From assembly GCA_947487955.1 (NCBI GenBank), contig CANKYV010000002.1, positions 36,466 through 100,465 on the forward strand: a DNA stretch of 64,000 nucleotides. Reading direction: 5' to 3'. Positions within the stretch are counted from its first letter, which is position 1, and every line of letters begins with the position of its first letter. This document shows positions 2,663-37,168 of this stretch, piece by piece. Source of the stretch: Alphaproteobacteria bacterium (GTDB lineage Bacteria > Pseudomonadota > Alphaproteobacteria > Paracaedibacterales > CAITNM01). A program made the position numbers and the translations under genes. The notes under the pieces are model-generated. The model saw nothing but the letters and a program-made list of their open reading frames with translations, was not told the origin of the DNA and did no database searches.

Positions 2663-4054
2663 TTACCCTTCACGATAATCACCAACCCCTAATGCACGTA
2701 ATTTTCTATGTAGCGCAGATCTTTCCATTCCAATAAATCTTGCCGTTTGCGAAATATTTCCATCAAATCGCTGAATTTGAGCCAATAAATATTTTCTCTC
2801 AAAAGTTTCTCTAGCTTCACGCAAAGGAAGCACAATAATATCAGCAGATTTTTGCTGCCAATTTCCTCCAAGAGGTGTGTCATCCTGAATCTCTGGCGGA
2901 AGCATTTCAGGAAGTATTGCACTGGCAGGATCCCCACCAGCCATTATTAAAAGCCATTCAACAACATTTTTGAGCTGCACAATATTTCCAGGCCAATTAT
3001 ATGTTTGCAAAATTGTTAATGAAGAATCATCAATTTTTCTAGTCATTGAACAACGGTTTTTAGCAATACTTTCCATAAAATATGATATTAGAAGGGGTAT
3101 ATCACTTGCTCGCTCTTTCAATGAAGGAAGTCGAATATGATTCGCAGTAAAACGATAGTACAAATCTTCACGTAAATTTCCGTTTTGTACTAGGTCATTC
3201 AAGTTCTCGGATGTGCTTGCAAAATACCTGATATCAACCTTAATAGGATCTTTGGCACCCAACCGAAAAAATGTACCATCTTGTAATAATTTTACGATTT
3301 TACCTTGGATAGGCAGGGGCAAAAGCTGAATCTCTTCCAGATATAAAGTCCCTCCATGTGTTTTTTCAACAATACCAATCTTTCGAGGCTCATTTTGATT
3401 TTGCCCTTGAATCTCTGTGCCAAAAAGCTCTGCTTCAATAGTAGTAGGATGTACACTACCACAATGAAATACAGTAAAAGGTAAACTTGCTCGCTTTGAA
3501 AGCCTGTGTATTTCGCGAGCAACTGTTTCTTTTCCGGTACCCTGTTGCCCTGTTATAAATGCTCTGCTATTTCCTTCTGCTATCTCTTCAATAAGATGAC
3601 GAATCTGTTCTATAGCCAAACTCTTTCCAACAAGACCAGAATTACCAGTTTTCTGACGCAATTCGTCGTTTTCGCGTTTTAAAGAAGATGACTCAATAGC
3701 ACGTTCGACAACCATAAGTAAGCGTTCTGTTTTAAAAGGTTTCTCAATAAAATCGTAGGCCCCCTTTTTTATAGCACTAACCGCAGTTTCAATTGTACTG
3801 TGACCACTAACCATAACGGCCGGCACATACGGATGATCTCGCTTTATAATTTCTAAAATTTTTAAACCATCTCGTTCGCCATCCCCCAACCACACATCCA
3901 GCACGACCAGATTCGGCTGGCGTTTTTTTATTTCTTCTAAAGCCTGCACCCCATCAGCTGCAACCCGGCAATTGTAGCCTTCATCACTGAGAATTCCACT
4001 AATAAGTTCGCGAATATCTTTCTCATCATCTACAACTAAAATATCAAACGCCAT
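2663..4054 (-). CDS. ntrX: NtrX-type response regulator (receiver + AAA+ + HTH)
   Basis: Contains a receiver domain (ILVVDDEKDIRE ... VVLDVWL), an AAA+ Walker A motif (ITGQQGTGKE) and a C-terminal Fis-type HTH. The segment ELFGTEIQGQNQ lacks the GAFTGA sigma-54 contact motif, as is typical for NtrX. It overlaps ntrY by 11 nt. Confidence 0.85.
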   Translation of the reverse strand: MAFDILVVDDEKDIRELISGILSDEGYNCRVAADGVQALEEIKKRQPNLVVLDVWLGDGERDGLKILEIIKRDHPYVPAVMVSGHSTIETAVSAIKKGAYDFIEKPFKTERLLMVVERAIESSSLKRENDELRQKTGNSGLVGKSLAIEQIRHLIEEIAEGNSRAFITGQQGTGKETVAREIHRLSKRASLPFTVFHCGSVHPTTIEAELFGTEIQGQNQNEPRKIGIVEKTHGGTLYLEEIQLLPLPIQGKIVKLLQDGTFFRLGAKDPIKVDIRYFASTSENLNDLVQNGNLREDLYYRFTANHIRLPSLKERASDIPLLISYFMESIAKNRCSMTRKIDDSSLTILQTYNWPGNIVQLKNVVEWLLIMAGGDPASAILPEMLPPEIQDDTPLGGNWQQKSADIIVLPLREARETFERKYLLAQIQRFDGNISQTARFIGMERSALHRKLRALGVGDYREG

Positions 4055-5870
4055 GCTGTTCCTTCTTTGAATAAGAAAACTCTAAAACAACTCTTGCACC
4101 TGATTGATGCTCATTGTCTTTAAATTCTATATTTCCATTGTGATCCATTGCAATTTTAGAAACAATCGCTAAACCTAATCCAGTACCTTTTTCACGTGTT
4201 GTATAATAAGGCTCAATCAAGCGTTCACGATTTTCTTTTTCAAAACCAGGACCATTATCTTCAATAATCATATAAAAATGTTTATCATCAGGCAACAATC
4301 TAAGTGAAATTAATGGTTTTAAAACTTTACTTTCCTCTACTGCATTAATAGCATTTTGTAAAAGATTTGTAAGTACTTGGTTAATTTGTTGACTATCACA
4401 ATCCCACAAAAAATTTTTAGGACCTTTAAATTCAAAATTAATATGGGGATAAGCCTGAATCTGCAAATCCATTGCTTGTTTACATAAATCAACAAGATCC
4501 TCTTCTTGTGTTTTTGGGTCCGGCATTCTTGCAAATGCTGAAAATTCATTCACAAGATTACCTATATGGTTTACTTGACGAATAATTGTATCAATACAAT
4601 TTTGGAAGGTATCTGGATCTTTTTCAATCTGCTGAAGATACTTCCGTTTTAACCGCTCCGCCGAAAGTTGAATCGGCGTTAAAGGATTTTTAATTTCATG
4701 AGCGATTTTTCTAGCCACATCAGCCCAAGCAGCTTTCCTTTGATTAAAGGCAAGCTCTTCATTCTGTTTTTTCAAGCGTTGAGTCATATGATTAAACGCC
4801 CCTATCAAATTATCAATTTCGTTGTTCAAAGGCTTATTTGTTATACGAACTGTCAAATCACCCTGACTTACACGGTGAGCAGCTTCAATAAGCTTAGAAA
4901 TAGGCGAAAATAGCGTATTAGCAAGAGATAAACCTAGCCATGCAGATGCTAAAATCAGAACTAAAACTAAAACCGCAAAAAATGCCAGGAATGTCAATTG
5001 TATATCCCCCTGCTGAAGCTCTAACATTGAGTAAGCTGTCACTGCTCCCTTAGCTTTTTTCATTGCTTTCGTAACTTCCTCAGAAACAGTTTTTCCAATA
5101 AATAAATAGGTATCACTGACTGGATCTAACTGTATAAGTGCGCGAACCTTATCTTTATGAGTGAACAAAACAATCTCACCTTCTTTGGCTTTGCTTAAGT
5201 CTTGCAAAGTAATATTTTCAAAGGCTAACGCAAAAGTAAAATATGATTTCGCAATAATATTAAGATGACCATCAAAAACAATGACCTCATTAAGGCCACG
5301 CTGCTCAGACAGTTGAGTTAATCCATGATTAAATTCCTCTGTATTTTGCAAAAGGGCGGAGGTGATGGGACGTAACTGCATCACCATGCTCATTCCATCG
5401 ATGCGAATTGTTTTTTGGTTTTCCTTTATATAATTTTCAGCGATTTCTGTGGCAGCATTGATAGTAGTTTTGAATGGTTCTGTAAATAACGATTTAATAG
5501 ATGAATTAAAAAAGAAAGTTGAGAACACTGAAATTCCAACAGCTGGGAGCAAACAAGTAATTGCTAAAACCATTATCAAATGCAAATGTAATTTTGTGCC
5601 ACGAATCCCTCTTTTTCGGTCCAACCATAAAGCGACAACTCGCCTGACAATAAATATAAGCATTAACACCAGAAGGCCAAGATTGATGTAAAGATAAGGC
5701 AAGACAGCAGCAGCTCTTAAAACCCCAGAACCAAGATGCATAACCCAAAGCGTGGCAATACATGAGCAAAGAGCAAGAAACATAACGACATACTGCATAT
5801 TTTTTGTAACTTTATCGCTACTCAAAAGCTGCATAATTCTTGCAGTAAAAGATGAAGTATCCACTATCAT
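4044..5870 (-). CDS. ntrY: NtrY-type sensor histidine kinase
   Basis: Has N-terminal TM helices, a HAMP domain (SQGDLTVRI...AFNHMTQRLKKQ), an H-box (ARKIAHEIKNPLTPIQLSAERL) characteristic of NtrY, and an HATPase domain (EDNGPGF ... GTGLGLAIV). Confidence 0.85.
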   Translation of the reverse strand: MIVDTSSFTARIMQLLSSDKVTKNMQYVVMFLALCSCIATLWVMHLGSGVLRAAAVLPYLYINLGLLVLMLIFIVRRVVALWLDRKRGIRGTKLHLHLIMVLAITCLLPAVGISVFSTFFFNSSIKSLFTEPFKTTINAATEIAENYIKENQKTIRIDGMSMVMQLRPITSALLQNTEEFNHGLTQLSEQRGLNEVIVFDGHLNIIAKSYFTFALAFENITLQDLSKAKEGEIVLFTHKDKVRALIQLDPVSDTYLFIGKTVSEEVTKAMKKAKGAVTAYSMLELQQGDIQLTFLAFFAVLVLVLILASAWLGLSLANTLFSPISKLIEAAHRVSQGDLTVRITNKPLNNEIDNLIGAFNHMTQRLKKQNEELAFNQRKAAWADVARKIAHEIKNPLTPIQLSAERLKRKYLQQIEKDPDTFQNCIDTIIRQVNHIGNLVNEFSAFARMPDPKTQEEDLVDLCKQAMDLQIQAYPHINFEFKGPKNFLWDCDSQQINQVLTNLLQNAINAVEESKVLKPLISLRLLPDDKHFYMIIEDNGPGFEKENRERLIEPYYTTREKGTGLGLAIVSKIAMDHNGNIEFKDNEHQSGARVVLEFSYSKKEQHGV

Positions 5871-5955
5871 TTTATTTTTCTTGTGCGTTGATCTTAGACA
5901 TATTCTTTCGCATAATTAAGCAAAGAGACTAAAAGTAGTATAAGACATATTTATC

Positions 5956-6867
5956 ATGCTTCAAAGGTTTGCGCTATGCTTGTTAATAACCTCGTTAAAA
6001 TTAAATTCAGCAGATGATGAATTTAATATTCAGCAAAAAATTCAAACCACGACAAGTAAGCTTTACAATAACATCACACTGGCAGCCAAACGTTGTCTAG
6101 TGTCACTTCCTTTTGACTGCCTCATAATCACTAGGCAAGTAACTGGCGCCCCCTACTCAGAAATTTCCGAGAATTTAATTCGTAAAAACACATCTTTAAC
6201 AAAAATTTTTAAAGTTCATTTTATAGAAACTTTCCTTAGGGCTGAAATGATTTATAACCTTTTTCCTTTTGTCAGCAGAGGAACAAAAGAATGCTTTCCC
6301 AGATTTTCAGAGTTATATCCCTTAGCACCCTCTATTGCAGCAGCAACAGCAATAGCCATAGGAGATATAGTGACTGCAAATCCATTTGAGCGCGTGAAAG
6401 TTTGCTATATTCGTAAGCTACCTATTCCTTTTTATTCATCGGATAAATTTGATTTTTCTGAATTCGCTAAAAGTAGAAAATGGCTTTTCACAGGAGGTAG
6501 CGTAACTTTTTTATCAAGTTTTGTTCATGTAGGCACCTTTTTAACACTCAACCATCACCTAAAACACTGGTTATTTAATAAAGAGAATGCTCTTACATTT
6601 TATGAATCATGCTTAATAGGCCCAATCATATCAACAGCACAAGCCACCATTTCATTTCCTCTCCTAACTTTCCGTGCAAAATTGCATGCAGAGCAATTGG
6701 AAGTGTTATCCAGAGGTATAATCAGTATTTCAGCGCCGCAATATTTTTACCAACTCTACCAAACAAATATGTTACCTGGTTTATTTTATGGCTGGCGAGC
6801 ACGTGCTGCACGTGGAACTATTATGGCAATGCTTGACACTTATTGGTTAAATCAAACTGCAAAATAA
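5956..6867 (+). CDS. Divergent mitochondrial carrier family (MCF/SLC25)-like protein
   Basis: 303 aa with three repeats of about 90-100 aa. Each repeat begins with a degenerate carrier signature P-x-[DE]-x-x-[KR]: PFDCLIITRQ (about aa 52), PFERVKV (about aa 144) and PLLTFRAK (about aa 234). Each is followed by a G-rich second motif: WLFTGGSVTFL and GLFYGWRARAARGTIMAMLDTYW. The size and tripartite layout fit MCF, but individual motifs are degraded. Confidence 0.4.
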   Translation: MLQRFALCLLITSLKLNSADDEFNIQQKIQTTTSKLYNNITLAAKRCLVSLPFDCLIITRQVTGAPYSEISENLIRKNTSLTKIFKVHFIETFLRAEMIYNLFPFVSRGTKECFPRFSELYPLAPSIAAATAIAIGDIVTANPFERVKVCYIRKLPIPFYSSDKFDFSEFAKSRKWLFTGGSVTFLSSFVHVGTFLTLNHHLKHWLFNKENALTFYESCLIGPIISTAQATISFPLLTFRAKLHAEQLEVLSRGIISISAPQYFYQLYQTNMLPGLFYGWRARAARGTIMAMLDTYWLNQTAK

Positions 6868-6945
6868 TACCATTTTATGATTCTAGCCCTAGATTAATCT
6901 GGCAGCCTTTGTTAGGTTACACTATTAATATTTGCGATACTAAAA

Positions 6946-7800
6946 ATGCAATCTGATCAGTGCATGTCCTTTTACCTAAGCAATGGTTTAGTAAAGGGGC
7001 ATTTTTGTCGATTAAGCACCTCAATTACTAATGCCCTAGAAAATCACAATTATTCTAATAAAATTAAATCCCTACTTGCGGAAATGGCAGCTATTTCTCA
7101 ATGTTTTACTATGGATATAAAGACGGATTCACAAACAACGATGCAGATAACAGGAACTTCTCCTGTCAAATTAGCATTGGTTAATTCGCTAAATTGCGAA
7201 TCTTTTAGATGCTGCGCAACGATAAATCAGCAGGCTAGCAAAAATATTGACCAACTATCATTACCTCAAGTATTTGGACAAGATGGAAAGCTTATTTTTA
7301 CAATAGATTTTGCCAATCAGTATTATCAAACCATTGTTGAATTGAATGCTTCAAGCTTACAAGAATGCTTTCAGCATTACTTCATTCAATCTCAGCAAAT
7401 TCCAACAATTGTCATGGTATGCAGCACGGTAGAAGATAAAAAAATTGAAAGCGCGGCTCTAATATTACAAAAAATGCCCTCAATTTCAAAAACACACATA
7501 GAGGAAGAGAATCAAACGTGGCATGAGGCTGCATGCTTTGCTTCCACCATAAAACCTCAAGAATTGATTGACACTAAATCCTCATTGAAAAACTTTATTA
7601 GCCTAGTATTTAATGATTTAAATCCAGTTGTTTCACGTGAAACATCTCTATCTTTTTGCTGCACTTGCAATAACAAAAAGATTGTCGACATCCTTAAAAA
7701 TTTTGGAGACCAGGATTTAAATGAGGAAAAAATTTTTGAAGTTGTGTGTGAATATTGCAATAAAAAATACACTATAGACAAAACAGAAATTGATTCATAG
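6946..7800 (+). CDS. hslO: Hsp33 redox-regulated chaperone
   Basis: 284 aa with the C-terminal zinc/redox switch CxC...CxxC (FCCTCNNKK...VVCEYCNKKY) and an Hsp33-like N-terminal domain. Confidence 0.8.
   Translation: MQSDQCMSFYLSNGLVKGHFCRLSTSITNALENHNYSNKIKSLLAEMAAISQCFTMDIKTDSQTTMQITGTSPVKLALVNSLNCESFRCCATINQQASKNIDQLSLPQVFGQDGKLIFTIDFANQYYQTIVELNASSLQECFQHYFIQSQQIPTIVMVCSTVEDKKIESAALILQKMPSISKTHIEEENQTWHEAACFASTIKPQELIDTKSSLKNFISLVFNDLNPVVSRETSLSFCCTCNNKKIVDILKNFGDQDLNEEKIFEVVCEYCNKKYTIDKTEIDS
7629..7644. promoter_or_regulatory. parS: parS centromere-like site (perfect palindrome TGTTTCACGTGAAACA)
   Basis: An exact 16-mer match to the canonical ParB-binding parS consensus. It is embedded in the hslO coding sequence, where it encodes VSRET. 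Confidence 0.8.
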
Positions 7801-7851
7801 AATTTAACAAATAGCCTTCGTCACTCTTGTTTTTATAATTTTACAGATACA

Positions 7852-8421
7852 ATGACAGCAGAAACCTTTAAACTATTTGTTACTGAATTAATAAAATGGA
7901 ATAAATCTATTAATTTAATTCAAGGAAAAACCGAAGAAGAATTATACAAGCGGCATATTCTTAACTCTTTAGAATTAAAACCTTATCTAGACTATGAAAA
8001 TGATATCATTCTAGATATAGGCTCCGGCGCAGGATTTCCAGCTATTATTCTAGCAATTGATGGCGCAAAGAATGTGCATTTGGTTGAACCCACAGGGAAA
8101 AAAGCTATTTTTTTAAAACATATACAAAAGTTATACAACTTACCCATTACAGTTCACCAGAAAAGATGGCAAGATTTAAACATTAATAATCCAACCGCAG
8201 TTATTAGCAGAGCTTTTGCATCACTAACGGAGTTATTAGAAATAATAAATTTTGTTTCACGTGAAACAAACAAAGCACGAGGACTCTTTTTAAAGGGCGA
8301 AAAAATAAAAGAAGAAATTTCTGAAGCAAACAAAAAATGGAAATTCGAAGTAGAAGTTTTTCAAAGTTCCACGCATGAAACAGGATGTATTGCAAAAGTA
8401 TGGGGAGTCTATAAAAAATGA
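7852..8421 (+). CDS. rsmG: 16S rRNA (guanine527-N7)-methyltransferase RsmG (GidB)
   Basis: 189 aa with the SAM motif DIGSGAGFPAIILAI. It lies directly upstream of parA with a 4-nt overlap, the conserved gidB-parA-parB synteny. Confidence 0.85.
   Translation: MTAETFKLFVTELIKWNKSINLIQGKTEEELYKRHILNSLELKPYLDYENDIILDIGSGAGFPAIILAIDGAKNVHLVEPTGKKAIFLKHIQKLYNLPITVHQKRWQDLNINNPTAVISRAFASLTELLEIINFVSRETNKARGLFLKGEKIKEEISEANKKWKFEVEVFQSSTHETGCIAKVWGVYKK
8253..8268. promoter_or_regulatory. parS: parS centromere-like site (perfect palindrome TGTTTCACGTGAAACA)
   Basis: A second exact copy of the 16-mer, embedded in rsmG (again encoding VSRET). It lies about 150 bp upstream of the parA start. Confidence 0.8.
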
Positions 8422-9176
8422 CAGCAAAAATTATTATGTTTGCAAACCAAAAAGGTGGCGTTGGAAAAACGACTACAGCCGTTAATATGGCAACTATCAT
8501 TGCGGCTTCCCAGTACAAAACACTTCTAATCGATTTTGATCCACAAGGAAATAGCACCTCTGGGGTTAATGGAGAAAAACAACATTTTGGTGCATACGCA
8601 TGGATGACAGGAACCCCAGGAAATCCAATCCAAAAAACCTACATTCCACACTTACATTTGATTAGCGCCAACATGGAATTAGCTGCAGCAGACATAGAGC
8701 TGCTCCAAACACAAAAGAGAGAATTTGTTTTGCAAGAAAAACTCGAACAATATAAAAGTGAATATGATTATATAGTTATTGACTGCCCTCCCTCTCTTGG
8801 TCTTTTAACGGTAAATGCCTTAACCGCAAGCTCACATATTATTGTACCAATGCAATGCGAATATTATGCCCTTGAAGGTATTAGTCATATTATGCAAATA
8901 ATCCAGCGGGTACAAAGTGGACTTAATCCTCACCTTCAATTACTTGGGATTCTTTTAACCATGTATGATAAACGCAGCTCTCTTAACCAACAAATAGCTA
9001 ATGATATCCGCTTCCATTTTCAGCAAAAGGTTTTTTCAGCGGTAATCCCAAGAAATGTTAAAATTGCAGAGGCACCATCACATGGAAAACCTATTATTTT
9101 GTATGATGTTAGAAGCACAGGAGCTATATCGTATATGGATGCAACAAAAGAACTACTTCAGCGCGTAAATATATAG
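8418..9176 (+). CDS. parA: Chromosome partitioning ATPase ParA (Soj)
   Basis: Has the deviant Walker A motif ANQKGGVGKTTTAVN. Length (252 aa) and position upstream of parB fit. Confidence 0.9.
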   Translation: MTAKIIMFANQKGGVGKTTTAVNMATIIAASQYKTLLIDFDPQGNSTSGVNGEKQHFGAYAWMTGTPGNPIQKTYIPHLHLISANMELAAADIELLQTQKREFVLQEKLEQYKSEYDYIVIDCPPSLGLLTVNALTASSHIIVPMQCEYYALEGISHIMQIIQRVQSGLNPHLQLLGILLTMYDKRSSLNQQIANDIRFHFQQKVFSAVIPRNVKIAEAPSHGKPIILYDVRSTGAISYMDATKELLQRVNI

Positions 9177-9186
9177 GAGAAATATA

Positions 9187-10047
9187 ATGTCAATACCAAC
9201 TAGACCATCATTAGGAAAGGGACTTGCTGCACTACTTGGAGATGCGAATATTTCTCACGCACAGCAAACACCTCAATCTATTGATATTATGAAAATTCAG
9301 CCAGGACGCAATCAGCCACGCCAAGAATTTTCCTCTGAAAATTTAACGGATTTAGCGCTATCAATTCAACGCAAGGGGATTCTGCAACCTTTATTGGTAA
9401 GATCTATTCAACCAGGTAAGTTTGAAATTATTGCTGGAGAAAGGCGCTGGAGAGCCGCACAGCAAGCAAAACTTGAACGAGTTCCAGTAGTCATTATAAA
9501 TTGCAATGACCAAGAAGCTTTAGAGATAGGTTTAATTGAAAATCTTCAGCGTCACGACCTAAATCCAATTGAAGAAGCAGAAGCAATTAGAAGACTTCAG
9601 GAAGAATTTAATTTAACCCAAGAACAAATTGCAAATAGTATTGGCAAAAGTCGAAGTTACGTTGCCAATATGGTGCGCCTAACATTACTCTCACCAAACA
9701 TAAAAACACTTATTTTCGACAATAAATTAAGCGCCGGACATGCCCGCGCAATAATAACATCAGAAAACCCAAATGAACTCGCTGAACAAATTCTAGAAAA
9801 AAAACTCAACGTAAGAGATGCAGAAAAACTGGCCAAAGAAACAAAGCATCCCAAACCAAAAAAAGCAAGTGGCGGGACGCAGTATATCGGCCCTATGGAT
9901 ACAGACATACAAGTTATTACTGATCTGTTGGGAGATGCTCTTAATATGAAGGTTGACCTTACAGTCAAAGGAGAGGCGGGCACTCTCACTATTCACTTTC
10001 AAAAGCTAACACAGCTTGATATTTTGCTTAATCGTTTACAAAGATAG
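9187..10047 (+). CDS. parB: Chromosome partitioning protein ParB (Spo0J)
   Basis: N-terminal GLGKGLAALLG and the ParB box IIAGERRWRAA, with an HTH region. 286 aa. Confidence 0.9.
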   Translation: MSIPTRPSLGKGLAALLGDANISHAQQTPQSIDIMKIQPGRNQPRQEFSSENLTDLALSIQRKGILQPLLVRSIQPGKFEIIAGERRWRAAQQAKLERVPVVIINCNDQEALEIGLIENLQRHDLNPIEEAEAIRRLQEEFNLTQEQIANSIGKSRSYVANMVRLTLLSPNIKTLIFDNKLSAGHARAIITSENPNELAEQILEKKLNVRDAEKLAKETKHPKPKKASGGTQYIGPMDTDIQVITDLLGDALNMKVDLTVKGEAGTLTIHFQKLTQLDILLNRLQR

Positions 10048-10315: not shown

Positions 10316-11641
10316 ATGCCATCTATAACGCTTTCAAATGTTTACAAAGTTCAGTGGCACGAGGGAATGCTTCTCAGCCCTCAGCACTTTCAATATGGCG
10401 AGCAAAGGCTTGAGCAGTTATTTTATACATCAACTCTCTGTGGCGCTTACACTGGGTGGGGACTTTTAGAATTTGATATCGATAGAAATATGCTTAGCCA
10501 AGGCATTATAGAGGTATCACAACTTTTCGCCATTCTTCCAGATGGCACAATTGTGCTACATAGTTCAGAAAATACAAAAACACCACAACAAACACTTACC
10601 TTAAGATATAACTTAAATGATTTAGGTTTAAAAAATGCAACAGAAGTTACCATTTGTTTGTGCCTTTATAAGACAACTGATAGTAACAAACGTTATGATT
10701 CAGTTGAATACACCAATATCAGTGATGAAAATAGTGCAGACAATGTAATTAATCTCCCCATCCTGCGTCCCAAAATATTTCTAAATCCTGATGTTGTCCC
10801 CAATGAATGCAGTGGATTTCCATTAATAAAGCTCACATTCGATGGAAAACAATTCTCAATGCAGCCATTTCTTCCTGCATCTTTAATAATTCCTATTAAT
10901 CATCCAATTAGAAAATTATTAATGGAAATTGTTTTAAATGTCCGTCAAAAAGCTGCGTATCTTATTAACAAATCTCAGCAAGTAACTTCTGCTTCTATTT
11001 TTCGAGAAACACAGGTAACACTAAAACCACTTATATCGTGCCTTTGTATTCTTGAACCCTTAGTAGGACAAGAAAAACTACACCCCGAAAGATTATTTGA
11101 TCATTTAGTTAATGTTGCTGCTCACTTGTTGCCTCTCCAAACAACACAAATTCCTGGCATACTACCAACCTATGATCCCTTTGACCCAGGCAACAGTATT
11201 GGGTACTTTTTAAAAATTTTTGAAAAAACTATAGCATCCATACAACAACGTTATTTAAGTATACCGTTTCATCAGCAGGACAGACTCTTTTATCTTCATA
11301 TACAACCCCCATATATAACAGACGATCTATACGTAGGATTTCGCTGCCCCCCAGGCATGAGTGAAAAGCAAATGTATGATTGGGTTCAAGAAGCCATCAT
11401 TAGTTCAGACGAGAAAATTGAAGTCGTCACAACACGACGAATTTCAGGCGCTATCAGAACTTCGGTGCAAGAAGAGCTAGATGATCTTATACCTAATTCT
11501 AACACGTTAGTGTTCAAGATCAAAAAAGGAGATGAATTTGTCAAAGCAAAAAACAATCTAAATATTTTCAATCCTGGAGATACTCAAGAAAAGCGGCCAC
11601 TAGATATTACTCTTTTTGTTCGCCAGGATGACTCCCCATGA
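10316..11641 (+). CDS. tssK: Type VI secretion baseplate/membrane-complex connector TssK (ImpJ/VasE)
   Basis: 441 aa. The N-terminus KVQWHEGMLLSPQHFQYGEQRLE matches the hallmark TssK start (W.EGm.L.PQHFQQ.dRy). Its stop overlaps the tssL start (ATGA). Confidence 0.85.
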   Translation: MPSITLSNVYKVQWHEGMLLSPQHFQYGEQRLEQLFYTSTLCGAYTGWGLLEFDIDRNMLSQGIIEVSQLFAILPDGTIVLHSSENTKTPQQTLTLRYNLNDLGLKNATEVTICLCLYKTTDSNKRYDSVEYTNISDENSADNVINLPILRPKIFLNPDVVPNECSGFPLIKLTFDGKQFSMQPFLPASLIIPINHPIRKLLMEIVLNVRQKAAYLINKSQQVTSASIFRETQVTLKPLISCLCILEPLVGQEKLHPERLFDHLVNVAAHLLPLQTTQIPGILPTYDPFDPGNSIGYFLKIFEKTIASIQQRYLSIPFHQQDRLFYLHIQPPYITDDLYVGFRCPPGMSEKQMYDWVQEAIISSDEKIEVVTTRRISGAIRTSVQEELDDLIPNSNTLVFKIKKGDEFVKAKNNLNIFNPGDTQEKRPLDITLFVRQDDSP

Positions 11642-12438
11642 AAACACCCAGCCTTTTTCACCACGGTATAATAAGCGAAGAATTTGATGTTTTCTATTAT
11701 GAACTTTTGCACGTTAAAGAAGCAGCACTAAGAAGCTATACTGCGCCTTCAATAATAGCAGAAGAACAAACTGATGATTCAAAAACAATTACGGTTTCTG
11801 GTCCTGTTCTTTCTCTACAAGAACGATTAACTACATTTTTTGATCAGCAACGCGAACGATTTAACAGAATTTCTATCGGACCAAATGCTATTTTTATACA
11901 AGAAGCACAATATGTTTTTGTAAGCTTAGCTGATGAAATAATGATCAATCAGGCATGGCACGGCGCAGATTACTGGCGGCAAAACTGCCTTGAAATTAAA
12001 ATTTTTCAAACGCAAGTTGCTGGAGAGCGAATATTCACACAAATAGAAAGTCTTTTAAAAACAAATGATCCTTTGCAGCGTGAACTTGCAAGGGTTTATC
12101 TTTTGTCTCTTTCCCTAGGTTTTCAAGGACGCTTTCGAGGACAGAGAGGGTTGCAAATTTTATCCTACAAACAACAACTTTTTAGTTTTATTTATCATCG
12201 CTCACCAACACTCACACAAGGAGAACATGATTATATAATAGATGACTCCTTAAAATTTGTTTTTACCGAAGCACCCACCAAGGGACTTCCTGACATAAGA
12301 CCCTGGTCATTAGCAGCCTTAAGTGTATTGCTAATCTATTTATTTGTAAGCTATGGAATATGGATAATTATCTCCCAAGACCTTCATGAAGTTCTTGAGG
12401 GTATTTTTCATCTTACAAAGCAAGGACCGGTAGTTTAA
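11638..12438 (+). CDS. tssL: Type VI secretion membrane protein TssL (DotU/IcmH family)
   Basis: 266 aa with a cytoplasmic DotU-like domain (YLLSLSLGFQGRFRG) and a single C-terminal TM helix (WSLAALSVLLIYLFVSYGIWIII). There is no OmpA/peptidoglycan-binding extension. It is coupled to tssM (TAATG). Confidence 0.8.
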   Translation: MKTPSLFHHGIISEEFDVFYYELLHVKEAALRSYTAPSIIAEEQTDDSKTITVSGPVLSLQERLTTFFDQQRERFNRISIGPNAIFIQEAQYVFVSLADEIMINQAWHGADYWRQNCLEIKIFQTQVAGERIFTQIESLLKTNDPLQRELARVYLLSLSLGFQGRFRGQRGLQILSYKQQLFSFIYHRSPTLTQGEHDYIIDDSLKFVFTEAPTKGLPDIRPWSLAALSVLLIYLFVSYGIWIIISQDLHEVLEGIFHLTKQGPVV

Positions 12439-15400
12439 TGGGCCCTAATACTTCTAATATGTTTTTTGACTTCATTCAATTTATACAAAACCAAACAAGC
12501 AGCCTACACAGCCTTATCTTCTCATTATTGTTTTTTGGTTTAGTGATTATGTTGATATGTGCACTCGTTATTAACATGAGTATTAATAAAAATAAGCCTA
12601 TAAATCTTAATGAAAAAAAGTCCTTCTTTAAAAGAAAATTTTCTCTACCCCCACTTGGGGGGGTGGTCACCTCTTTTTTAGTAAAAAATAGATGGATAGA
12701 AGTTAACTCAATTAGTCAAATTTTTCTAAAAGGGCTGGGGTTTTTAAAAAAGCATTTTGGAGAATATGCCTTATACAGACTGCCTTGGTACTTGGTACTT
12801 GGCGCAAAAGACTCAGGAAAATCCACCCTTGTAAACCATACTCAGTTACATGAGCCACACAGTAGTCCAGATTTCAGTTTTCATGAACCAAACCCATCAA
12901 TTCAATGGAAATTTTTTAGCAGGGGTGTACTTATAGATGTCGCTGGTCGATTATTTCTAAATAATCCCGAGACAGAAACTGACACAAATTCCTGGCGCAA
13001 TCTTCTCATTCTCCTAGCGCGATATAGAGCTCAAAGACCTTTAAATGGTATTGTGCTGTGTATAAATGCAAAAGATCTTTATGGAAAAGAAAAGTTATCA
13101 CCCGATGCATTGCAAATTCGAGCAAATGCGATGTTACACACTCTAAGCAGAACACAAACCAGTTTACGCATACGCTTACCTATTTATGTGATTGTTACTC
13201 ATTGTGATGCAATCCCCGGATTTCAAAGTTTTGTTCAAGAATTGCCAACAAAAAATCAGGGAAATATACTGGGCTGGTCAAGCCCTTATAACCTACAGTC
13301 CCTTTATTCACCAAGCTGGATTGAAGAAGCCTTTCAATATCTTGATGAAAAAATTGACAACTTACGAACTGAACTTTTAAGTTCGGAAATAAATCCAAAT
13401 AATGCGGATGGGTTGTTTGTTTTCTCAAAAGAGCTTTTAACAATCAATGAAAATCTTTGCGGATACTTAAATCGTATTTTTCACAATAGTGCAACTCATG
13501 AAGCCCCAATCCTTCGAGGAATATATTTCACCGGTAACAGCGTTACACACGATTCAAATTTATCACTTACAAACGAACCTTCTTCGCAGCTATCACTCGA
13601 AGCACATTCAAATTCATCCATGTCGCTTGTGTTTTTGGAAGATTTATTTCAAGCAAAAATCTTCTCGGAAATAGGCATTGCTAAGCCTTTAATAGGAAAA
13701 ATTAGAACATTAAACCGAGGAGTAAGCTTAATTAGAAATGCAACTATATGTTTCACATTACTTGCAACTTATGGGCTATTTAATGCTTACGATACATTTG
13801 AAGAAAAAAAAGAACGAATTCTGCCTGTATTATCAAAAATGAGTGGTCTTTTAAGAGATATGCAACATTTAAAAATTGATGAGCCTGGACACTCCGGATC
13901 TTTGTTTGATACGTACGCACGCCAACTCCTTGAAATGATGCAAGAACTTCAACAAACCGAATTTTTTTCTGCTGCTGTTCCTGCTTCATGGTTTAGCCCA
14001 CTACATAAAGATTTACACGTAAGCTTACAGGTTGCCTATCAGGAAATAGTAATTCGTACAATTTATGTAGACTTGCTAATGAAAGCCAGAAATTTATTGC
14101 AGTTACGCCCAACAACCGCAGATCGATCAAATTCTCTAGCAGCACTTTTAAATCCTTTAACATCAAGCGAATATCTTCTCTTAAAGAAGTATGTTGAAGG
14201 CCTGCATGAACTAAATGACATGCTCTATAAGTTTAATAATTTAAAAAGTGCGCCCGATGCTCGAGACCTTGATAGTCTAGTTATGTACACCTTTAATGCA
14301 CACTTGCCAGAAACCTTTATTGGGCAATACGCAGGCTTTCGAAAGCTCTTAAACGAATCTGCTTATCCTTTAATAGATTTAAAGCCTTACCAGCAAATGG
14401 CTCGTCAAACTCTCTCTATCCTCTATGAAAATTTTTTAAATGCTCTATTTTCTAAAAATGACCCCTTAACACTCGTGTCGCGCATCCAAATTTTGATCGA
14501 TCAGCTACAAAGCCAAAATGAAAGACGTCTACTCGATCTCACTAGTCTTAGAAATGCCGTTGGAGATTTAACTATAACAGTACCATCTTTAGGAGAGCTT
14601 GGCTCAACTTGGATGGATGGAAAAAATTTCATGCCAGGAAAAGAATTTGACAAAATCCTAGATCACATTGACATGTCTCCTCTTTTTGGTCGCGATGTGA
14701 CTCAGTATCTAGTTGATCAAACTGCAATCGGCTTTAATCGTTTCAAAGCCTTTCTAGCAATGATCAATGACTCCTTGACAGATAAAAGCCTTAATCAGAA
14801 AGCATTGCCCTCTTCTCAGGGCCTATTAACCCTAGAAAAATACCTAACTTCCTTATTTAAGCTAAGCTTCATGGGGGCTCCTTCTGGCAAACCACTAACT
14901 ACAAAAATTCCAACAGGCAAGCTTGTATACTGGGACTTAAGCCTTGTACAGGCTGCCTATAACACAATGAAAGAATTTGACACCTTCATCAGTAAAGACT
15001 TATTGGCGTACCCAATATCAGTTCAAGAAAACATAAAAATAGCCGCCAGAATAAACTTACAAGAAGTCTTAATTGCAACACTTGGACGAGCCCAAACATT
15101 CATAGATACCCCAAAAGATATAAAGCCAGGAACAGAATCTGAACGCATATTGCGCGCTCAAATTAATGACTTTAAAGCCGTTGTTGATCCTCTTGGAAAG
15201 CTATTAGAGACTCTAAAACAAGACGATGTTAGCAAAGCTTACATAGACCTTCGTAATATACTCTGTAATCAGTCACAGTGGCTTCTTACCCATATTGATA
15301 CCTACATTAAGCAACATAAACTTTACAAAATGAAGCTTGATGATTTTGAATGGTGGGACGGAAAACCAGGCGCATCTGTTGCGGCTTTTGCTGTTCATGA

Positions 15401-16727
15401 TATCAATGATTTGAAGCACTACACAACTGTTCAGCGAGAATTACTAGTTGCTTCTATAAATGATTTTGCAAAACCAATTGTATCACTTCTTAAAACGCCC
15501 GCATTTGATGGAGCAGAAGACAGAGATGAAGAGCTTATTGAACGCTGGATAAGATTAACAGAACAGGTAGAAGCTTATAACAAAAAACAACCAAATAATT
15601 CACTTGCTCAACTTGAGAATTTTATTCTCAAAGATCTAAATGCTAGTAATTATAAAGATGCGCTTAAAAAGCTAAAACTCAAAGAACTCAACGAGATATC
15701 TGGCGATTATTTACTTGAAATTTTACGAGAAATTAAAGTAAAAATTTTGTCTCGCGCTGAAGCTTTACAGCGCCAACAAGCTATTGAAAATTACGAAAAT
15801 CTTGCTCTGTTTTTTAACAAAAATCTAAGAGGAAAATTTCCTTTTGTTGGTGCCGCTCTTGAAAAAAACACCGGAGAAGCAAATCCCGAAGACCTTCGTG
15901 AGTTTTTTGATTTATTCAAAGACTATGGTAACTCAACCAAAGAAATTCTAGATCAACTATACCAAATTGGCACTGACATGAAAGAAGTTGTGCAATTTTT
16001 GCTTGCAATGGAAGATGTTCGTCAGTTCCTTAATGCATACTTAAAAGATCCCAACGCAGATAAACCAACTTTCAATATTAAAGTTGATTTTAGAACTGCG
16101 CGCGATAAAGAAAGAGGCGGCAATATTATTGTTGATTGGTACTTAAAAACAGATGAAATAACCACTATTGATAAGCAAGATAAAAAAACCGAAGGAACTT
16201 GGTCGTTTGGCAAGCCTGTAACGGTCGGTTTTAAATGGCCAGAGACAGGAAAAACCCCCAAACCAACATCTGATTCAGGCCAAGCTTCTTTGAAAGTTGA
16301 AGATTCCACAGCTGAATTTGTCTATGATAGCCAATGGGCATTGCTATGGTTAATTCGCGATCATCTAGCCCCAGAAGGATCCTACTCTAAAATTGCCGCC
16401 CCTAATCCGTACGTCCTAAAATTCAGCATGCCCTTAACCGATCAAACATTTACAACCGTGTACTGCTCTATAAGCCTTCTTGATTCCTCTGGTAAACCCA
16501 AGGGCTCACCAAAAATTATTACAATACCTACATTTCCAACTTTAGCACCAGATTTACCCAAAAAAGCCAAAGAAATAAAAGATAACCCAGTCTTAACCGA
16601 AGGAACAATAGAAGCCGTAGATTTTGATACCCTTATTGGCAAGCAAAAAAACACACCAAAAGAAGAAACGACTGATGGCCCTCAGGAAGCCCCTGAAGAA
16701 AAAGATAAAGAAGAGGGGGATCAATGA
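12438..16727 (+). CDS. tssM: Type VI secretion membrane protein TssM (IcmF family), long form
   Basis: 1429 aa with an N-terminal TM, a Walker A NTPase motif (WYLVLGAKDSGKSTLV), a further TM at about aa 430-450, a large periplasmic IcmF-like region (NLRGKFPFVGAALEKN...EDLREFFDLF) and an acidic low-complexity tail (EAPEEKDKEEGDQ). Confidence 0.85.
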   Translation: MGPNTSNMFFDFIQFIQNQTSSLHSLIFSLLFFGLVIMLICALVINMSINKNKPINLNEKKSFFKRKFSLPPLGGVVTSFLVKNRWIEVNSISQIFLKGLGFLKKHFGEYALYRLPWYLVLGAKDSGKSTLVNHTQLHEPHSSPDFSFHEPNPSIQWKFFSRGVLIDVAGRLFLNNPETETDTNSWRNLLILLARYRAQRPLNGIVLCINAKDLYGKEKLSPDALQIRANAMLHTLSRTQTSLRIRLPIYVIVTHCDAIPGFQSFVQELPTKNQGNILGWSSPYNLQSLYSPSWIEEAFQYLDEKIDNLRTELLSSEINPNNADGLFVFSKELLTINENLCGYLNRIFHNSATHEAPILRGIYFTGNSVTHDSNLSLTNEPSSQLSLEAHSNSSMSLVFLEDLFQAKIFSEIGIAKPLIGKIRTLNRGVSLIRNATICFTLLATYGLFNAYDTFEEKKERILPVLSKMSGLLRDMQHLKIDEPGHSGSLFDTYARQLLEMMQELQQTEFFSAAVPASWFSPLHKDLHVSLQVAYQEIVIRTIYVDLLMKARNLLQLRPTTADRSNSLAALLNPLTSSEYLLLKKYVEGLHELNDMLYKFNNLKSAPDARDLDSLVMYTFNAHLPETFIGQYAGFRKLLNESAYPLIDLKPYQQMARQTLSILYENFLNALFSKNDPLTLVSRIQILIDQLQSQNERRLLDLTSLRNAVGDLTITVPSLGELGSTWMDGKNFMPGKEFDKILDHIDMSPLFGRDVTQYLVDQTAIGFNRFKAFLAMINDSLTDKSLNQKALPSSQGLLTLEKYLTSLFKLSFMGAPSGKPLTTKIPTGKLVYWDLSLVQAAYNTMKEFDTFISKDLLAYPISVQENIKIAARINLQEVLIATLGRAQTFIDTPKDIKPGTESERILRAQINDFKAVVDPLGKLLETLKQDDVSKAYIDLRNILCNQSQWLLTHIDTYIKQHKLYKMKLDDFEWWDGKPGASVAAFAVHDINDLKHYTTVQRELLVASINDFAKPIVSLLKTPAFDGAEDRDEELIERWIRLTEQVEAYNKKQPNNSLAQLENFILKDLNASNYKDALKKLKLKELNEISGDYLLEILREIKVKILSRAEALQRQQAIENYENLALFFNKNLRGKFPFVGAALEKNTGEANPEDLREFFDLFKDYGNSTKEILDQLYQIGTDMKEVVQFLLAMEDVRQFLNAYLKDPNADKPTFNIKVDFRTARDKERGGNIIVDWYLKTDEITTIDKQDKKTEGTWSFGKPVTVGFKWPETGKTPKPTSDSGQASLKVEDSTAEFVYDSQWALLWLIRDHLAPEGSYSKIAAPNPYVLKFSMPLTDQTFTTVYCSISLLDSSGKPKGSPKIITIPTFPTLAPDLPKKAKEIKDNPVLTEGTIEAVDFDTLIGKQKNTPKEETTDGPQEAPEEKDKEEGDQ

Positions 16728-17917
16728 GCAATAGCCCCATCTCAACGCCGTCACCTCTTTTTGAGAAATTATTAGCGCCCCTTACCACAAACAATGGTGT
16801 GGGAGAATGGTTACGCTACGATCCTGTTTATGTGAAAATTCGTGATGCAAGGCGCGAAGAAAATGATGGCATGCGCAGAGAAAGCTGGGAAGGAGAGTTA
16901 AAACATGCCGACTGGCAAGAGGTTGAAAACCTTGCTGTCGAGACATTAGAAAAAAAATCAAAAGATTTGCAACTTCTTGCTTGGCTAATAGAAGCAAGAT
17001 TACATTTATATGGTTTAGATGTTTTTTCTGAAGACATAGGGCTCCTACTAGCGTTCATGAAATCTTTTTGGAGCAACTGTTACCCGCAAAAAACAGAAGA
17101 TCCCGAACAAGAATTTCGTACACACATTTTAGAGGCGCTTCTAAGAGCAACAACGGAAACCCTTATTCTTGAGCCGTTTACAGAACTTTCACCAATATTG
17201 AATCAGCCTATAAACTTAGCAAAATGCTACGAAAACGATAGTTTAGAAAAAATGTCTAAAAAAGGGGGGGCGGCCACTGACTCTTATCAAAAAGCCTTGG
17301 CAAATGGCCTCATAACAATAGGCAGAATCAAAAATGCATTTTCTGAGGTAAGCAAAGAAGCAGGCACAACGAAATTGGCCAAGCTAGAAACATGCATACA
17401 AAACCTGAAAGATATCGATGATTTTCTTGATAAAGAAATTGGAAATGAAGGCCCTAATTTTGATGGGATAATTAATCACCTACAAGAAATGAAGGGATTA
17501 TATAGTCTATGCCAAAAAGTTATTAGTGAAAAAACAACAAAAGAAAATCCCTCAACCTCAAAATTAACATCTCCAGAAGAAGAAATTTCTCAAGCACCAG
17601 AAGAAAGTGATCCAAGCAAAAAAACCATAAATGATCGAGCCGGTGTCTATCAAGCAATTCGCCAACTGGGAGATTTTTTGTTAATGTTAGAGCCTCACAG
17701 CCCATCTCCAGCCATCCTAAAGCTTATCGGAGGGTGGGAGAATAAAACTCTATCGCAAATCTTAGTAGAACTACAGTCCGCCCAGCCAGAGACCCGATCA
17801 CTTTTAGAGCTACTGGCTAGAGCAACACAACAAGAAAAAGTTCAACCTACCCCCGCCAACAACAGCCCTCTCGGGTCAATAGACACGAGCGCCCTAAGCA
17901 ATCTAGCCCAAGGATAG
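16724..17917 (+). CDS. tssA: Type VI secretion protein TssA (ImpA N-terminal domain family)
   Basis: 397 aa. It has ImpA_N-type motifs (GEWLRYDPVYVKIRDARREEN; DLQLLAWLIEARL) and the C-terminal motif EPHSPSPAILKLIGGWENKTLSQILVEL, typical of short TssA proteins. It is coupled to tssM (ATGA). Confidence 0.75.
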   Translation: MSNSPISTPSPLFEKLLAPLTTNNGVGEWLRYDPVYVKIRDARREENDGMRRESWEGELKHADWQEVENLAVETLEKKSKDLQLLAWLIEARLHLYGLDVFSEDIGLLLAFMKSFWSNCYPQKTEDPEQEFRTHILEALLRATTETLILEPFTELSPILNQPINLAKCYENDSLEKMSKKGGAATDSYQKALANGLITIGRIKNAFSEVSKEAGTTKLAKLETCIQNLKDIDDFLDKEIGNEGPNFDGIINHLQEMKGLYSLCQKVISEKTTKENPSTSKLTSPEEEISQAPEESDPSKKTINDRAGVYQAIRQLGDFLLMLEPHSPSPAILKLIGGWENKTLSQILVELQSAQPETRSLLELLARATQQEKVQPTPANNSPLGSIDTSALSNLAQG

Positions 17918-20230: not shown

Positions 20231-20995
20231 ATGAATAAATGCTTATGCAGTTTTTTTGCTGTTTTAGTGGTGGTGTTATTTGATACGCAAAGAGTTTTTG
20301 CGACAGCAAGTGATATTTTGGGGGCGACATATACCAATGAAACAATAGAAGACCCAGAAAAAATAATGAATTTTAAGGCTCCTTATGGAAGCATTCCTCC
20401 TATCTCAGAGTTGTTTGTTCATCCGCAGCTTCCTGAGGAAACAATAGTTCTTCCGAATGGGGGAAAAGCAATATGCGGTCGTGCTTGTGATATTGAAACT
20501 AATGGAATGAAAGTTGAATCATTTGGAATGGGAGAGAGAAGGGTTGTTCAGGAAAAAGAAGAGCTTTTATATACCTTTGGTATATGTGATTGTATCGGTA
20601 TTTCTATATGGGATCCACAAAGTAAAACGGCTGGCTTGTATCATGCCTCTAAAATGGAACTTCGTGAAAATAATTTTTTATTTCAAGAAAACATTTCAGA
20701 AATTATGAAATTTTTTCCGGCTAATACTTCTTGTTTAGAGGTAAATTTGGCCAGTTGTTATTGGTCAAACGATTTATCTGAGGTTATAGACTTGCTGCAA
20801 GCAAGGAATTTTAGAATTTCGGGTCTTTTTTCTCCTGATGTTTTATTAGAAAGCACAGAGCACGGAAGAAAAATATATGTTAATAAAGAAACCACACCAT
20901 TATCATACTTTCAAAAGACATGTTGTAGCTTGATAGTAGCCCTCAACAGCAGTACTGGGGAGATAGGAATTTACCCTAGTTGGTTAAACAATTAA
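20231..20995 (+). CDS. Hypothetical secreted protein with a conserved-looking Cys/His pair
   Basis: 254 aa with a signal peptide (CSFFAVLVVVLFDTQRVFA). The core FGICDCIGISIWDPQSKTAGLYHAS loosely resembles CheD-type or other Cys-His hydrolase cores. No confident family assignment. Confidence 0.5.
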   Translation: MNKCLCSFFAVLVVVLFDTQRVFATASDILGATYTNETIEDPEKIMNFKAPYGSIPPISELFVHPQLPEETIVLPNGGKAICGRACDIETNGMKVESFGMGERRVVQEKEELLYTFGICDCIGISIWDPQSKTAGLYHASKMELRENNFLFQENISEIMKFFPANTSCLEVNLASCYWSNDLSEVIDLLQARNFRISGLFSPDVLLESTEHGRKIYVNKETTPLSYFQKTCCSLIVALNSSTGEIGIYPSWLNN

Positions 20996-36307: not shown

Positions 36308-37168
36308 TTAGAGCTTTTCGATTTCTTCTTCTGGCATGCCGGTATATTTTATTATATCCTTAGTTGGCATTCCTCCTCTTTTCATATTAGATGCTATTTC
36401 TAATTTTCTTCTTTCCAAGCCTGCTTCAAAACCCTTAGATTCATATTTCTTCAAGGTATTCGCCTCAATCCTTAGCCATTTGAGATGATCTTCATAAGCC
36501 TGGCGCTCTTCCTCCCCAAAATTCATCACCGTTAAGACATCCAGCGCTTTCTTCAAATACGGCTTATCTAGATTTTTTGGTAAATTATCCCGATTGAGTA
36601 AATCATGACGAGTTAAAAACGCTCCCCAGACATCTAATGAGGTTTTAACCTTCTCAACAATGTCCTTAAGCTCTTCGTTTTGATTATTACAAAACTTCTT
36701 TAGCTCAATAGTATGTAATTCCAAATCCTTAAAGTAGACAAGGTTGCTGTCTTTTTCACGAATGTTAAAGACGTTGTGATACTTTTCTACCCCAAGAATT
36801 GAGGTGAAATTTAAAATATGAATACCAATTGCTTTAGAAAGCTGCGAATAATCTTCCCCACCCTTTAATTGTTCGGTATAAACTTTAGCCCAATAATAAA
36901 GAGCTCTTTTGTCATAATCTGCTTCATCACTAATCTGGATCTCAATGTTAAAATACTTGCCATTCTCACCCTTAGCTTTGATGTCTAGAATTGAGAGTTT
37001 ATCATTTTTAAAGTTTTGAGGATTGTAAGGATTCAATAGGATGACATCAGCAACCTTATCTTTCTCACTGACAATTGAATTAATCAATGAAATAAGTAGG
37101 TCTTTGTTTTCTTCCACACCAAAGATTTTCTTAAAAGCGATATCAACTCTTGGATTAATGTTTTCCAT
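36308..37168 (-). mobile_element. Rpn/YhgA-like PD-(D/E)XK nuclease family transposase-like protein
   Basis: 286 aa. The N-terminus VDIAFKKIFGVEENKDLLISLINSIV and the core LSILDIKAKGENGKYFNIEIQ are typical of the putative-transposase PDDEXK/Rpn family. I saw no terminal inverted repeats. Confidence 0.65.

Follow-up and report, generated by a model that had tools for sequence, protein, structure and literature searches.

The mitochondrial carrier family (SLC25) is regarded as a eukaryotic invention of no bacterial ancestry; a 2026 preprint gives it no known prokaryotic homologues and puts forward CysZ/YihY as remote ancestors (bioRxiv 10.64898/2026.03.31.715626). Bacterial homologues have been described from a handful of Legionellales, Rickettsiales and Chlamydiales (PMC5621508), and these few copies have been read as effectors stolen from hosts (PMC3252375, PMC5621508). 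Among them is LncP of Legionella pneumophila, with homologues in Legionella longbeachae and Neorickettsia sennetsu (PMC3252375), a Dot/Icm substrate that is modelled to escape SecYEG/YidC and reaches host mitochondria via TOM and TIM22 (PMC3252375; PMC12981334). Another Dot/Icm effector, Lpg1137 (SLC25_like, PF18405), was reported at contact sites between the endoplasmic reticulum and mitochondria (PMC5621508). Here we describe a carrier gene from a 64,000-nt stretch of an alphaproteobacterial genome (GenBank assembly GCA_947487955.1, contig CANKYV010000002.1, positions 36,466 to 100,465; hereafter the window). Its 303-aa product belongs to a vertically inherited, selected carrier family of endosymbiont-related Alphaproteobacteria that combines a predicted export signal with retention of the transport-critical residues. 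The probable lineage here is the Paracaedibacteraceae (Holosporales), described members of which are endosymbionts of protists. Literature searches returned no paper linking carriers with Holosporales, and none on a bacterial carrier bearing a signal peptide.

The open reading frame (ORF) was found in the ORF list as the preliminary description of the locus had given it (5956–6867, plus strand, ATG start), and an in-frame stop 12 nt upstream of the ATG fixes the N-terminus, so that choice of start codon is not an issue. Scanned against Pfam, the protein matched Mito_carr (PF00153) with 25.4 bits (expectation value (E) 1.2e-5; gathering score 22.3), the match covering only residues 213–295, in the third repeat. 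A scan of NCBIfam gave no relevant match, and a single-sequence phmmer search of PDB sequences gave none. Relatives were few: a search of 5.8 billion proteins returned only eight, and a profile of these eight run against 1.84 billion representatives returned 43 matches. PF00153 was matched by 33/33 scanned proteins of this wider alignment, the weak tail included. Public data hold an identical protein (P0001), already tagged PF00153 by public pipelines. Profile–profile comparison (hhalign) aligned a 13-member family profile with 12 canonical carriers at a probability of 99.0% (E 5.2e-18) over 240 columns, family columns 56–297 falling on carrier columns 25–279 with all three repeats in register. 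When the family profile was searched against PDB sequences, ADP/ATP carriers were the best matches (yeast ADP/ATP carriers, E 3e-5). The Mito_carr score above its cutoff and the hhalign alignment to canonical carriers both bear out the earlier proposal of a bacterial mitochondrial-carrier homologue; the ORF product is a true, very diverged member of SLC25.

Structure prediction pointed the same way. The AlphaFold2 model, for which the eight family sequences alone served as input, had a predicted local distance difference test score (pLDDT) of 75.5 and a predicted template-modelling score (pTM) of 0.70, and showed six long helices with three short ones between the pairs. Comparison of the model with the PDB (Foldseek) returned carriers for all of the first 15 matches (probability 0.99–1.00, template-modelling (TM) score 0.45–0.61, root-mean-square deviation (rmsd) 5–7 Å), including UCP1, the bovine, yeast and Thermothelomyces ADP/ATP carriers and carriers of Tetrahymena; at the 16th match the probability dropped to 0.23. 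In the viral library BFVD, the top 13 matches were carriers of giant and insect viruses (probability 1.0, TM score 0.5–0.63). The fold is thus predicted to be the 3×2-helix carrier fold anticipated from the sequence, its confident structural neighbours being carriers only. The tripartite organisation claimed at the outset holds by alignment to canonical carriers and in the AlphaFold2 model, yet the repeats were not mutually detectable: hhalign of the three repeat sub-alignments, run globally and locally, gave probabilities below 4% (E 0.011–0.79), and the claim therefore rests on the canonical-carrier alignment and the model. A generic repeat hidden Markov model (HMM) built from 36 canonical repeats found only repeat 3 significant, repeats 1 and 2 scoring no more than ∼6 bits. 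Because its repeats do not recognise one another and the generic HMM finds only the third, the protein is an extreme member of the carrier family. Its third repeat lines up with the third repeat of the ADP/ATP carriers of yeast and cattle, R286 falling on the LRG arginine.

Three degenerate P-x-[DE]-x-x-[KR] signatures had been read in the sequence, and all are present, at P52, P143 and P235 (spaced by 91 and 92 residues; Table 1), with an exact fit in the middle one only (PFERVK); helix 1 keeps the acid without the base, and helix 5 the base without the acid. The accompanying second motif, [FY]-x-G, was recovered in repeat 3 (FYG279) and, as FTG180, in repeat 2, and not in repeat 1, which has V87 for the glycine. 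Functional residues were tabulated over 19 family members mapped onto canonical carriers, the contact point of each repeat being defined as the residue seven positions past the [FY]xG glycine. In the bovine carrier (1OKC), the matrix bridges join acid (helix 1) to base (helix 3), acid (helix 3) to base (helix 5) and acid (helix 5) to base (helix 1), namely E29–R137, D134–R234 and D231–K32. The partners of the first (D/E54 and K/R148) and second (E145 and R240) were retained in 19/19 members; the third had uncharged residues on both sides in 19/19 (L/M/Q/I for the helix 5 acid, I/T/V for the helix 1 base). Q61, the Q brace, was invariant (19/19), as was P235 (19/19), and the contact points were R/K95 in 17/19 (I), S/T187 in 19/19 (II) and R286 in 19/19 (III). 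No complete [FY][DE]xx[KR] motif of the cytoplasmic network was found on helices 2, 4 and 6 across the family; the even helices of the 303-aa carrier read Y100-N-x-x-P, N199-H-x-x-K203 and L293-D294-x-x-W297. Judged from these alignments, conservation is concentrated exactly where a working carrier needs it, in a gate of unusual architecture. The paired loss of one gate bridge, together with the missing cytoplasmic network, offers a natural experiment on carrier mechanism.

Relatives were encoded at 12 genome loci, in metagenome-assembled genomes (MAGs) labelled Ca. Finniella, Ca. Odyssella, Alphaproteobacteria and, in two cases, Pelagibacter. The two labels ‘Candidatus Pelagibacter’ (loci L007 and L010) may be wrong, the family being otherwise confined to MAGs with the first three labels. 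The order ntrX-ntrY, divergent from carrier-hslO-rsmG-parA-parB, was seen in 7/12 loci, 6 of which continue into tssK, and the same gene order was found on Logan contigs. Within syntenic loci, identity was 92% for NtrX, 88% for NtrY and 85% for ParA, and only 40–50% for the carrier, the intact ORF of which is kept in relatives down to 37–54% identity. More distant family members lie either after dnaE and before folD/bioY, or after two major facilitator superfamily (MFS) genes, gshB and a response regulator. Across four loci that are closely related, dN/dS was 0.08–0.15 for the carrier, 0.15–0.23 for hslO and 0.06–0.13 for rsmG; the carrier gene is under purifying selection. Its GC content (0.362, against 0.372 for the window) lies within a base composition that is flat across the region. 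Together with the conserved synteny, this agrees with the earlier suggestion of a long-resident gene in a host-associated lineage. The putative origin of the gene is likely eukaryotic. A viral donor was considered and is not indicated, the carriers of giant viruses being no closer than eukaryotic ones (12–15% identity).

Table 1. Coordinates of the carrier gene, its parts and its neighbours in the window.
Feature	Position	Strand	Basis
Carrier-family coding sequence, 303 aa	5956..6867	+	ATG start, stop codon included; ORF list, Pfam, hhalign, AlphaFold2/Foldseek
Sec signal-peptide-like N-terminus, residues 1-18 (MLQR/FALCLLITSL/KLNS), then acidic ADDE	5956..6009	+	Most hydrophobic N-terminal segment, KD10 2.53
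Repeat 1 (~residues 36-122), helix 1/short matrix helix/helix 2	6061..6321	+	In-register hhalign; AlphaFold2 helices 22-63, 67-76, 78-113
Signature P52-F-D54-x-x-I57-x-x-R60-Q61 (PFDCLIITRQ), helix 1	6109-6138	+	
Contact point I, R95	6238-6240	+	
Repeat 2 (~residues 123-212), helix 3/matrix helix/helix 4	6322..6591	+	In-register hhalign; AlphaFold2 helices 124-153, 167-178, 181-207
Signature P143-F-E145-R-V-K148, helix 3	6382-6399	+	
Contact point II, S187-S188	6514-6519	+	
Repeat 3 (residues 213-303), helix 5/matrix helix/helix 6	6592..6864	+	Pfam 213-295; generic repeat HMM
Signature P235-L-L237-T-F-R240-A-K242 (PLLTFRAK), helix 5	6658-6681	+	
Contact point III, R286	6811-6813	+	
Divergent AT-rich intergenic region, ntrY/carrier gene, 85 bp	5871..5955	.	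Sequence read
ntrX	2663-4054	-	Conserved divergent neighbour; translation
ntrY	4044-5870	-	Conserved divergent neighbour; translation
hslO (Hsp33), rsmG, parA, parB	6946..10047	+	Conserved co-directional downstream neighbours
Type VI block: tssK (T6SS_VasE), tssL (DotU), tssM (IcmF-related, 1429 aa), tssA (ImpA_N)	10316-17917	+	Directly after parAB

The profile search added two further sets of low-complexity, bacterial-looking carriers, among which bacterial origin was verified for P0040 and P0051 only. One set (P0038–P0046, P0064) has signal-like N-termini and shows the same paired loss of the bridge between the helix 5 acid and the helix 1 base; the other (P0051, P0053, P0056, P0057, P0060, P0067–P0069) is signal-less and has all three P-x-[DE]-x-x-[KR] signatures complete. 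BLASTP scores to the window family were 44–87 bits for the signal-bearing set, 36–64 for the signal-less set and 33–42 for canonical carriers. These wider bacterial carriers are only 17–24% identical to the window family and stand in different gene neighbourhoods. P0040 has bacterial genes around it, and the alanine racemase encoded on its contig shares 68% identity with that of Ca. Finniella inopinata, so that this lineage carries more than one divergent carrier type. At the same locus (L013), P0040 adjoins a gene for a leucine-rich-repeat protein and is near a FAD_binding_4 and cytokinin-dehydrogenase gene (5266–7011, 11674–13011), which are eukaryote-like features. P0051 (L014 5119–6811, L015 3744–5436; contig GC 28%) has an overlap with a nucleoside-diphosphate-kinase (NDK) gene at the stop of the latter; their operon further encodes a second NDK, a CYTH protein, a radical S-adenosylmethionine protein and a choline-kinase-like protein. 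In P0066, a carrier of the P0051 type is fused to an N-terminal domain of ∼250 aa.

Across the window family, ∼25 extra N-terminal residues were found, with a hydrophobic core of 10–13 residues followed by an acidic patch; the character of this segment is conserved and its sequence is not. The first signature proline lies near residue 50 in the family (52 here), compared with roughly 21–50 in the retrieved canonical carriers, in which the first hydrophobic segment is helix 1 itself. The 303-aa carrier has a basic n-region and small residues at −3/−1, with putative cleavage between KLNS and ADDE. A home-made signal-peptide rule, run on the 63 long ORFs of the window, flagged this carrier along with MlaC, TolC-type, autotransporter and ABC binding proteins; the cytoplasmic controls (NtrX, ParA, ParB, RsmG, Hsp33, HemE and ChlI) all went unflagged. 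The same rule flagged 12/18 family members, 0/13 canonical carriers and 3/8 of the wider signal-bearing bacterial group. From the sequences we infer that the carrier gained a Sec-type signal peptide, which would presumably be cleaved. Helix hydrophobicity, considered with respect to a split between inner-membrane proteins and effectors, showed no difference among the family, the wider bacterial groups and canonical carriers; since the carrier helices are only moderately hydrophobic, the N-terminal segment is the strongest targeting element. A lipoprotein signal was rejected: there is a conserved Cys at residue 8, and no lipobox precedes it. Past helix 6 the C-terminal tail measures only 5–10 residues, which leaves no room for a C-terminal secretion signal.

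The explanation we favour, to which we would give an even chance, is that of an intact transporter residing in the inner membrane of the symbiont itself, where it would carry an anionic metabolite of the host. It draws on the N-terminal Sec-type signal, the absence of a C-terminal tail, the core-genome position and the vertical inheritance, a combination that is the opposite of the LncP design. We infer the cleavage, location, orientation, substrate and transport mode of the carrier as follows. The signal peptide would take the protein to SecYEG/YidC and place its N-terminus on the periplasmic side; the carrier domain would then be oriented as in mitochondria, the ‘matrix’ face towards the bacterial cytoplasm, and would work in the symbiont's own inner membrane. 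Carriers have both termini facing the intermembrane space, and to translocate the N-terminus a bacterium would need just such an element, be it a signal that is cleaved or an anchor that is not. The two retained matrix bridges of three and the absent cytoplasmic network argue for net, uniport-like transport rather than strict 1:1 exchange; in carrier theory a missing cytoplasmic network points to net transport. The substrate would be an anionic host metabolite, most plausibly a phosphate-bearing one such as a nucleotide or nucleotide-derived cofactor. Such a substrate is suggested by the pair of basic contact points, which the ADP/ATP carrier also has, and perhaps by the rank of ADP/ATP carriers among the PDB sequence matches and the NDK operon of the relative P0051; LncP carries ATP and GTP (PMC3252375).

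Several points weigh against an intact carrier in the symbiont's own membrane. Over long range, carrier dN is ∼2 times that of hslO and rsmG and ∼5 times that of parA, and fast divergence with stops and frameshifts in relatives is what genes for host interaction, or dispensable ones, typically show. At contact point II the family has S/T-S/T, a misfit to the rule for nucleotide carriers, in which this position is G-[IVLM]. The signal-peptide call came from a crude rule and not from SignalP; 6/18 family members miss one criterion, and 1/8 signal-less bacterial carriers was falsely flagged. The bacterial carrier homologues that have been characterised are all injected effectors (PMC3252375, PMC12981334), and very hydrophobic type IV effectors may pass via an inner-membrane intermediate (PMC12981334), so that Sec targeting alone is compatible with later export; a type IV system could lie outside the 64 kb surveyed. 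As to the disrupted relatives, the carrier copy of L006 (5874–6794) has an in-frame stop, those of L003 (5135–5952) and L012 (3989–4666) are frameshifted, and L011 shows T8→T9 plus A8→A9 near the carrier 3′ end (8816–8845); a frameshifted carrier C-terminus recurs in the 68-member protein cluster P0006. The L006 contig also splits a neighbouring gene and tracts of the T8/A8 type are common in these genomes, so that assembly error is possible; the disrupted copies could represent real inactivation, phase variation or such error.

The same observations must be set against other explanations. The main rival is an effector: a carrier delivered into the host, through the type VI system or through a type IV system encoded elsewhere, could enter a host membrane, whether the mitochondrial inner membrane or some other, and alter metabolite or nucleotide flux there. 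LncP, the only characterised bacterial carrier, works so (PMC3252375); described members of this lineage are obligate intracellular symbionts, and their type VI system, thought to deliver proteins aimed at the host, is seen in reviews as the likely device by which Holosporales interact with hosts (PMC11909080). Type VI genes lie 3.4 kb downstream of the carrier gene, its fast sequence evolution and the disrupted copies would suit an effector, and some type IV effectors are known to travel in two steps, with an intermediate in the inner membrane (PMC12981334). Against this stand the family-wide Sec-type N-terminal signal, a route that LncP is modelled as avoiding (PMC3252375), the absence of a C-terminal extension and, in the Pfam scan of the carrier, of a PAAR, MIX or other type VI effector domain, and the position of hslO, rsmG and parAB between the carrier and type VI genes. 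Type IV genes were not found among the 30 window proteins scanned, and the carrier has lost one of its matrix salt bridges and all of the cytoplasmic network, which also speaks against an effector. We hold the effector reading unlikely, and the LncP-like action on host mitochondria raised in the preliminary description was not borne out: the protein and its relatives start with a Sec-type signal-peptide-like segment, lack the extension and have housekeeping neighbours, and LncP, on its model, must avoid SecYEG/YidC (PMC3252375). A carrier fold that does not transport, i.e. a membrane scaffold, an insertase-like or regulatory protein (compare some eukaryotic SLC25 outliers) or a decaying remnant, would account for repeats 1 and 2 being too diverged for Pfam, the failure of the repeats to recognise one another, the gate losses, the stops and frameshifts in L003, L006, L011 and L012, and the moderate fit of the model to carriers (TM score 0.45–0.61, rmsd 5–7 Å). 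It is quite unlikely: purifying selection is as strong as on adjoining housekeeping genes, the residues that never vary are the very ones that form the gate and contact the substrate in working carriers, the ORF is intact across relatives at 37–54% identity, and some disruptions may be assembly errors, as in L006.

An older, native history of the gene was also weighed. The bacterial carriers could be survivors of a native (alpha)proteobacterial, Sec-inserted lineage ancestral to mitochondrial SLC25, and the observations fit, in that these carriers resemble each other more closely than they do eukaryotic ones, occur in Alphaproteobacteria and have bacterial targeting signals; the same observations equally fit a single ancient transfer out of a protist, with rapid divergence thereafter, and we regard native survival as very improbable. 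An artefact, be it an ORF arising by chance or eukaryotic host DNA placed in a bacterial contig through faulty binning or assembly, comes to mind because carriers are overwhelmingly eukaryotic and the genomes are metagenome assemblies of host-associated bacteria. It is refuted by synteny across independent assemblies and its probability is negligible: the gene sits amid bacterial genes with gaps of 78–85 bp in the same order in those assemblies, in GC content it matches the genome, it lacks introns and begins with a bacterial-type signal, and dN/dS is well below 1. We return, then, to the carrier in the symbiont's own inner membrane. If this is true, it would be the first carrier of the SLC25 kind working in a bacterial cell envelope, would show an endosymbiont wired to host metabolism by the transporter type of mitochondria, with a bearing on organelle integration, and would provide a tractable bacterial system for carrier biogenesis. 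Were the protein an effector instead, it would carry the LncP strategy into a second class of bacteria and into hosts that are protists.

The surroundings of the gene were those of a bacterial core region (Table 1). The divergent ntrY expected beside the carrier gene was confirmed, with ntrX behind it; the place where ntrBC would usually be is taken by ntrX-ntrY, and ntrBC is not upstream of the carrier gene. At the homologous locus L017, NtrY_N, HAMP, HisKA and HATPase_c domains were annotated on ntrY and Response_reg and Sigma54_activat on ntrX, and HSP33, GidB, ParA and ParB_N were annotated by Pfam on L016 and L017. One sigma-70-like site was located in the 85-bp gap between ntrY and the carrier gene (5888–5916, plus strand), a number not above shuffled expectation in the promoter scan. 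In the 78-bp gap between the carrier gene and hslO, a terminator scan found no terminator-like site. No second carrier gene was found in the window. The remaining content of the window includes flagellar, haem, ABC-transporter and autotransporter genes. FlgI, the flagellar P-ring protein (43350–44960, minus strand; 536 aa), matched its Pfam profile in two stretches and extends ∼170 residues beyond the 343 profile positions, suggesting a large insertion. A PD-(D/E)XK-family transposase gene (36308–37168, minus strand; PDDEXK_2, E 1e-58) lies amid a housekeeping region, and a small autotransporter (27764–28945, minus strand; 393 aa) has its beta-domain at residues 123–372 and a passenger of only ∼100 residues. 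Signal-peptide-like N-termini without any Pfam match were seen in three sizeable plus-strand ORFs (20231–20995, 254 aa; 29052–31073, 673 aa; 49098–50444, 448 aa), which are candidates for exported proteins specific to the lineage.

Compared with eukaryotic SLC25 proteins (ADP/ATP carriers 1OKC, 4C9Q and 6GCI; UCP1, 8HBV), the window carrier is alike in its ∼300 residues, six helices, three repeats and three short matrix-side helices, and shares the proline kink, the Q brace, two matrix bridges and basic contact points I and III. It differs in being encoded on a bacterial chromosome, in its extra N-terminal segment and in an identity of only 12–17%; furthermore, Pfam recognises only its third repeat, the bridge between the helix 5 acid and the helix 1 base is lost, the cytoplasmic network is missing, and contact point II is S/T-S/T. 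The carriers of giant and insect viruses are cases of the same fold outside eukaryotic genomes. Lpg1137 is likewise a very diverged SLC25 relative from an intracellular bacterium; its family, PF18405, was matched by 7/33 of the wider proteins and gave no match to the window carrier even at E 10. Like LncP, the window carrier is a bacterial carrier-family protein of an intracellular lineage for which a nucleotide-type substrate is plausible, and a weak exchange requirement is possible, LncP showing unidirectional transport. In contrast, LncP, compared here by description, has three recognisable signatures and a short C-terminal extension, whereas the window carrier has a Sec-type N-terminus, no extension and a position in the core genome. 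If the carrier does work in the symbiont's inner membrane, its functional analogue would be the TLC/NTT transporters of Rickettsiales, Chlamydiae and Holosporales, which serve inner-membrane uptake of nucleotides and cofactors from the host cytosol and whose 12-helix, MFS-type fold is unrelated and bacterial in origin (PMC3252375; bioRxiv 10.64898/2026.03.31.715626).

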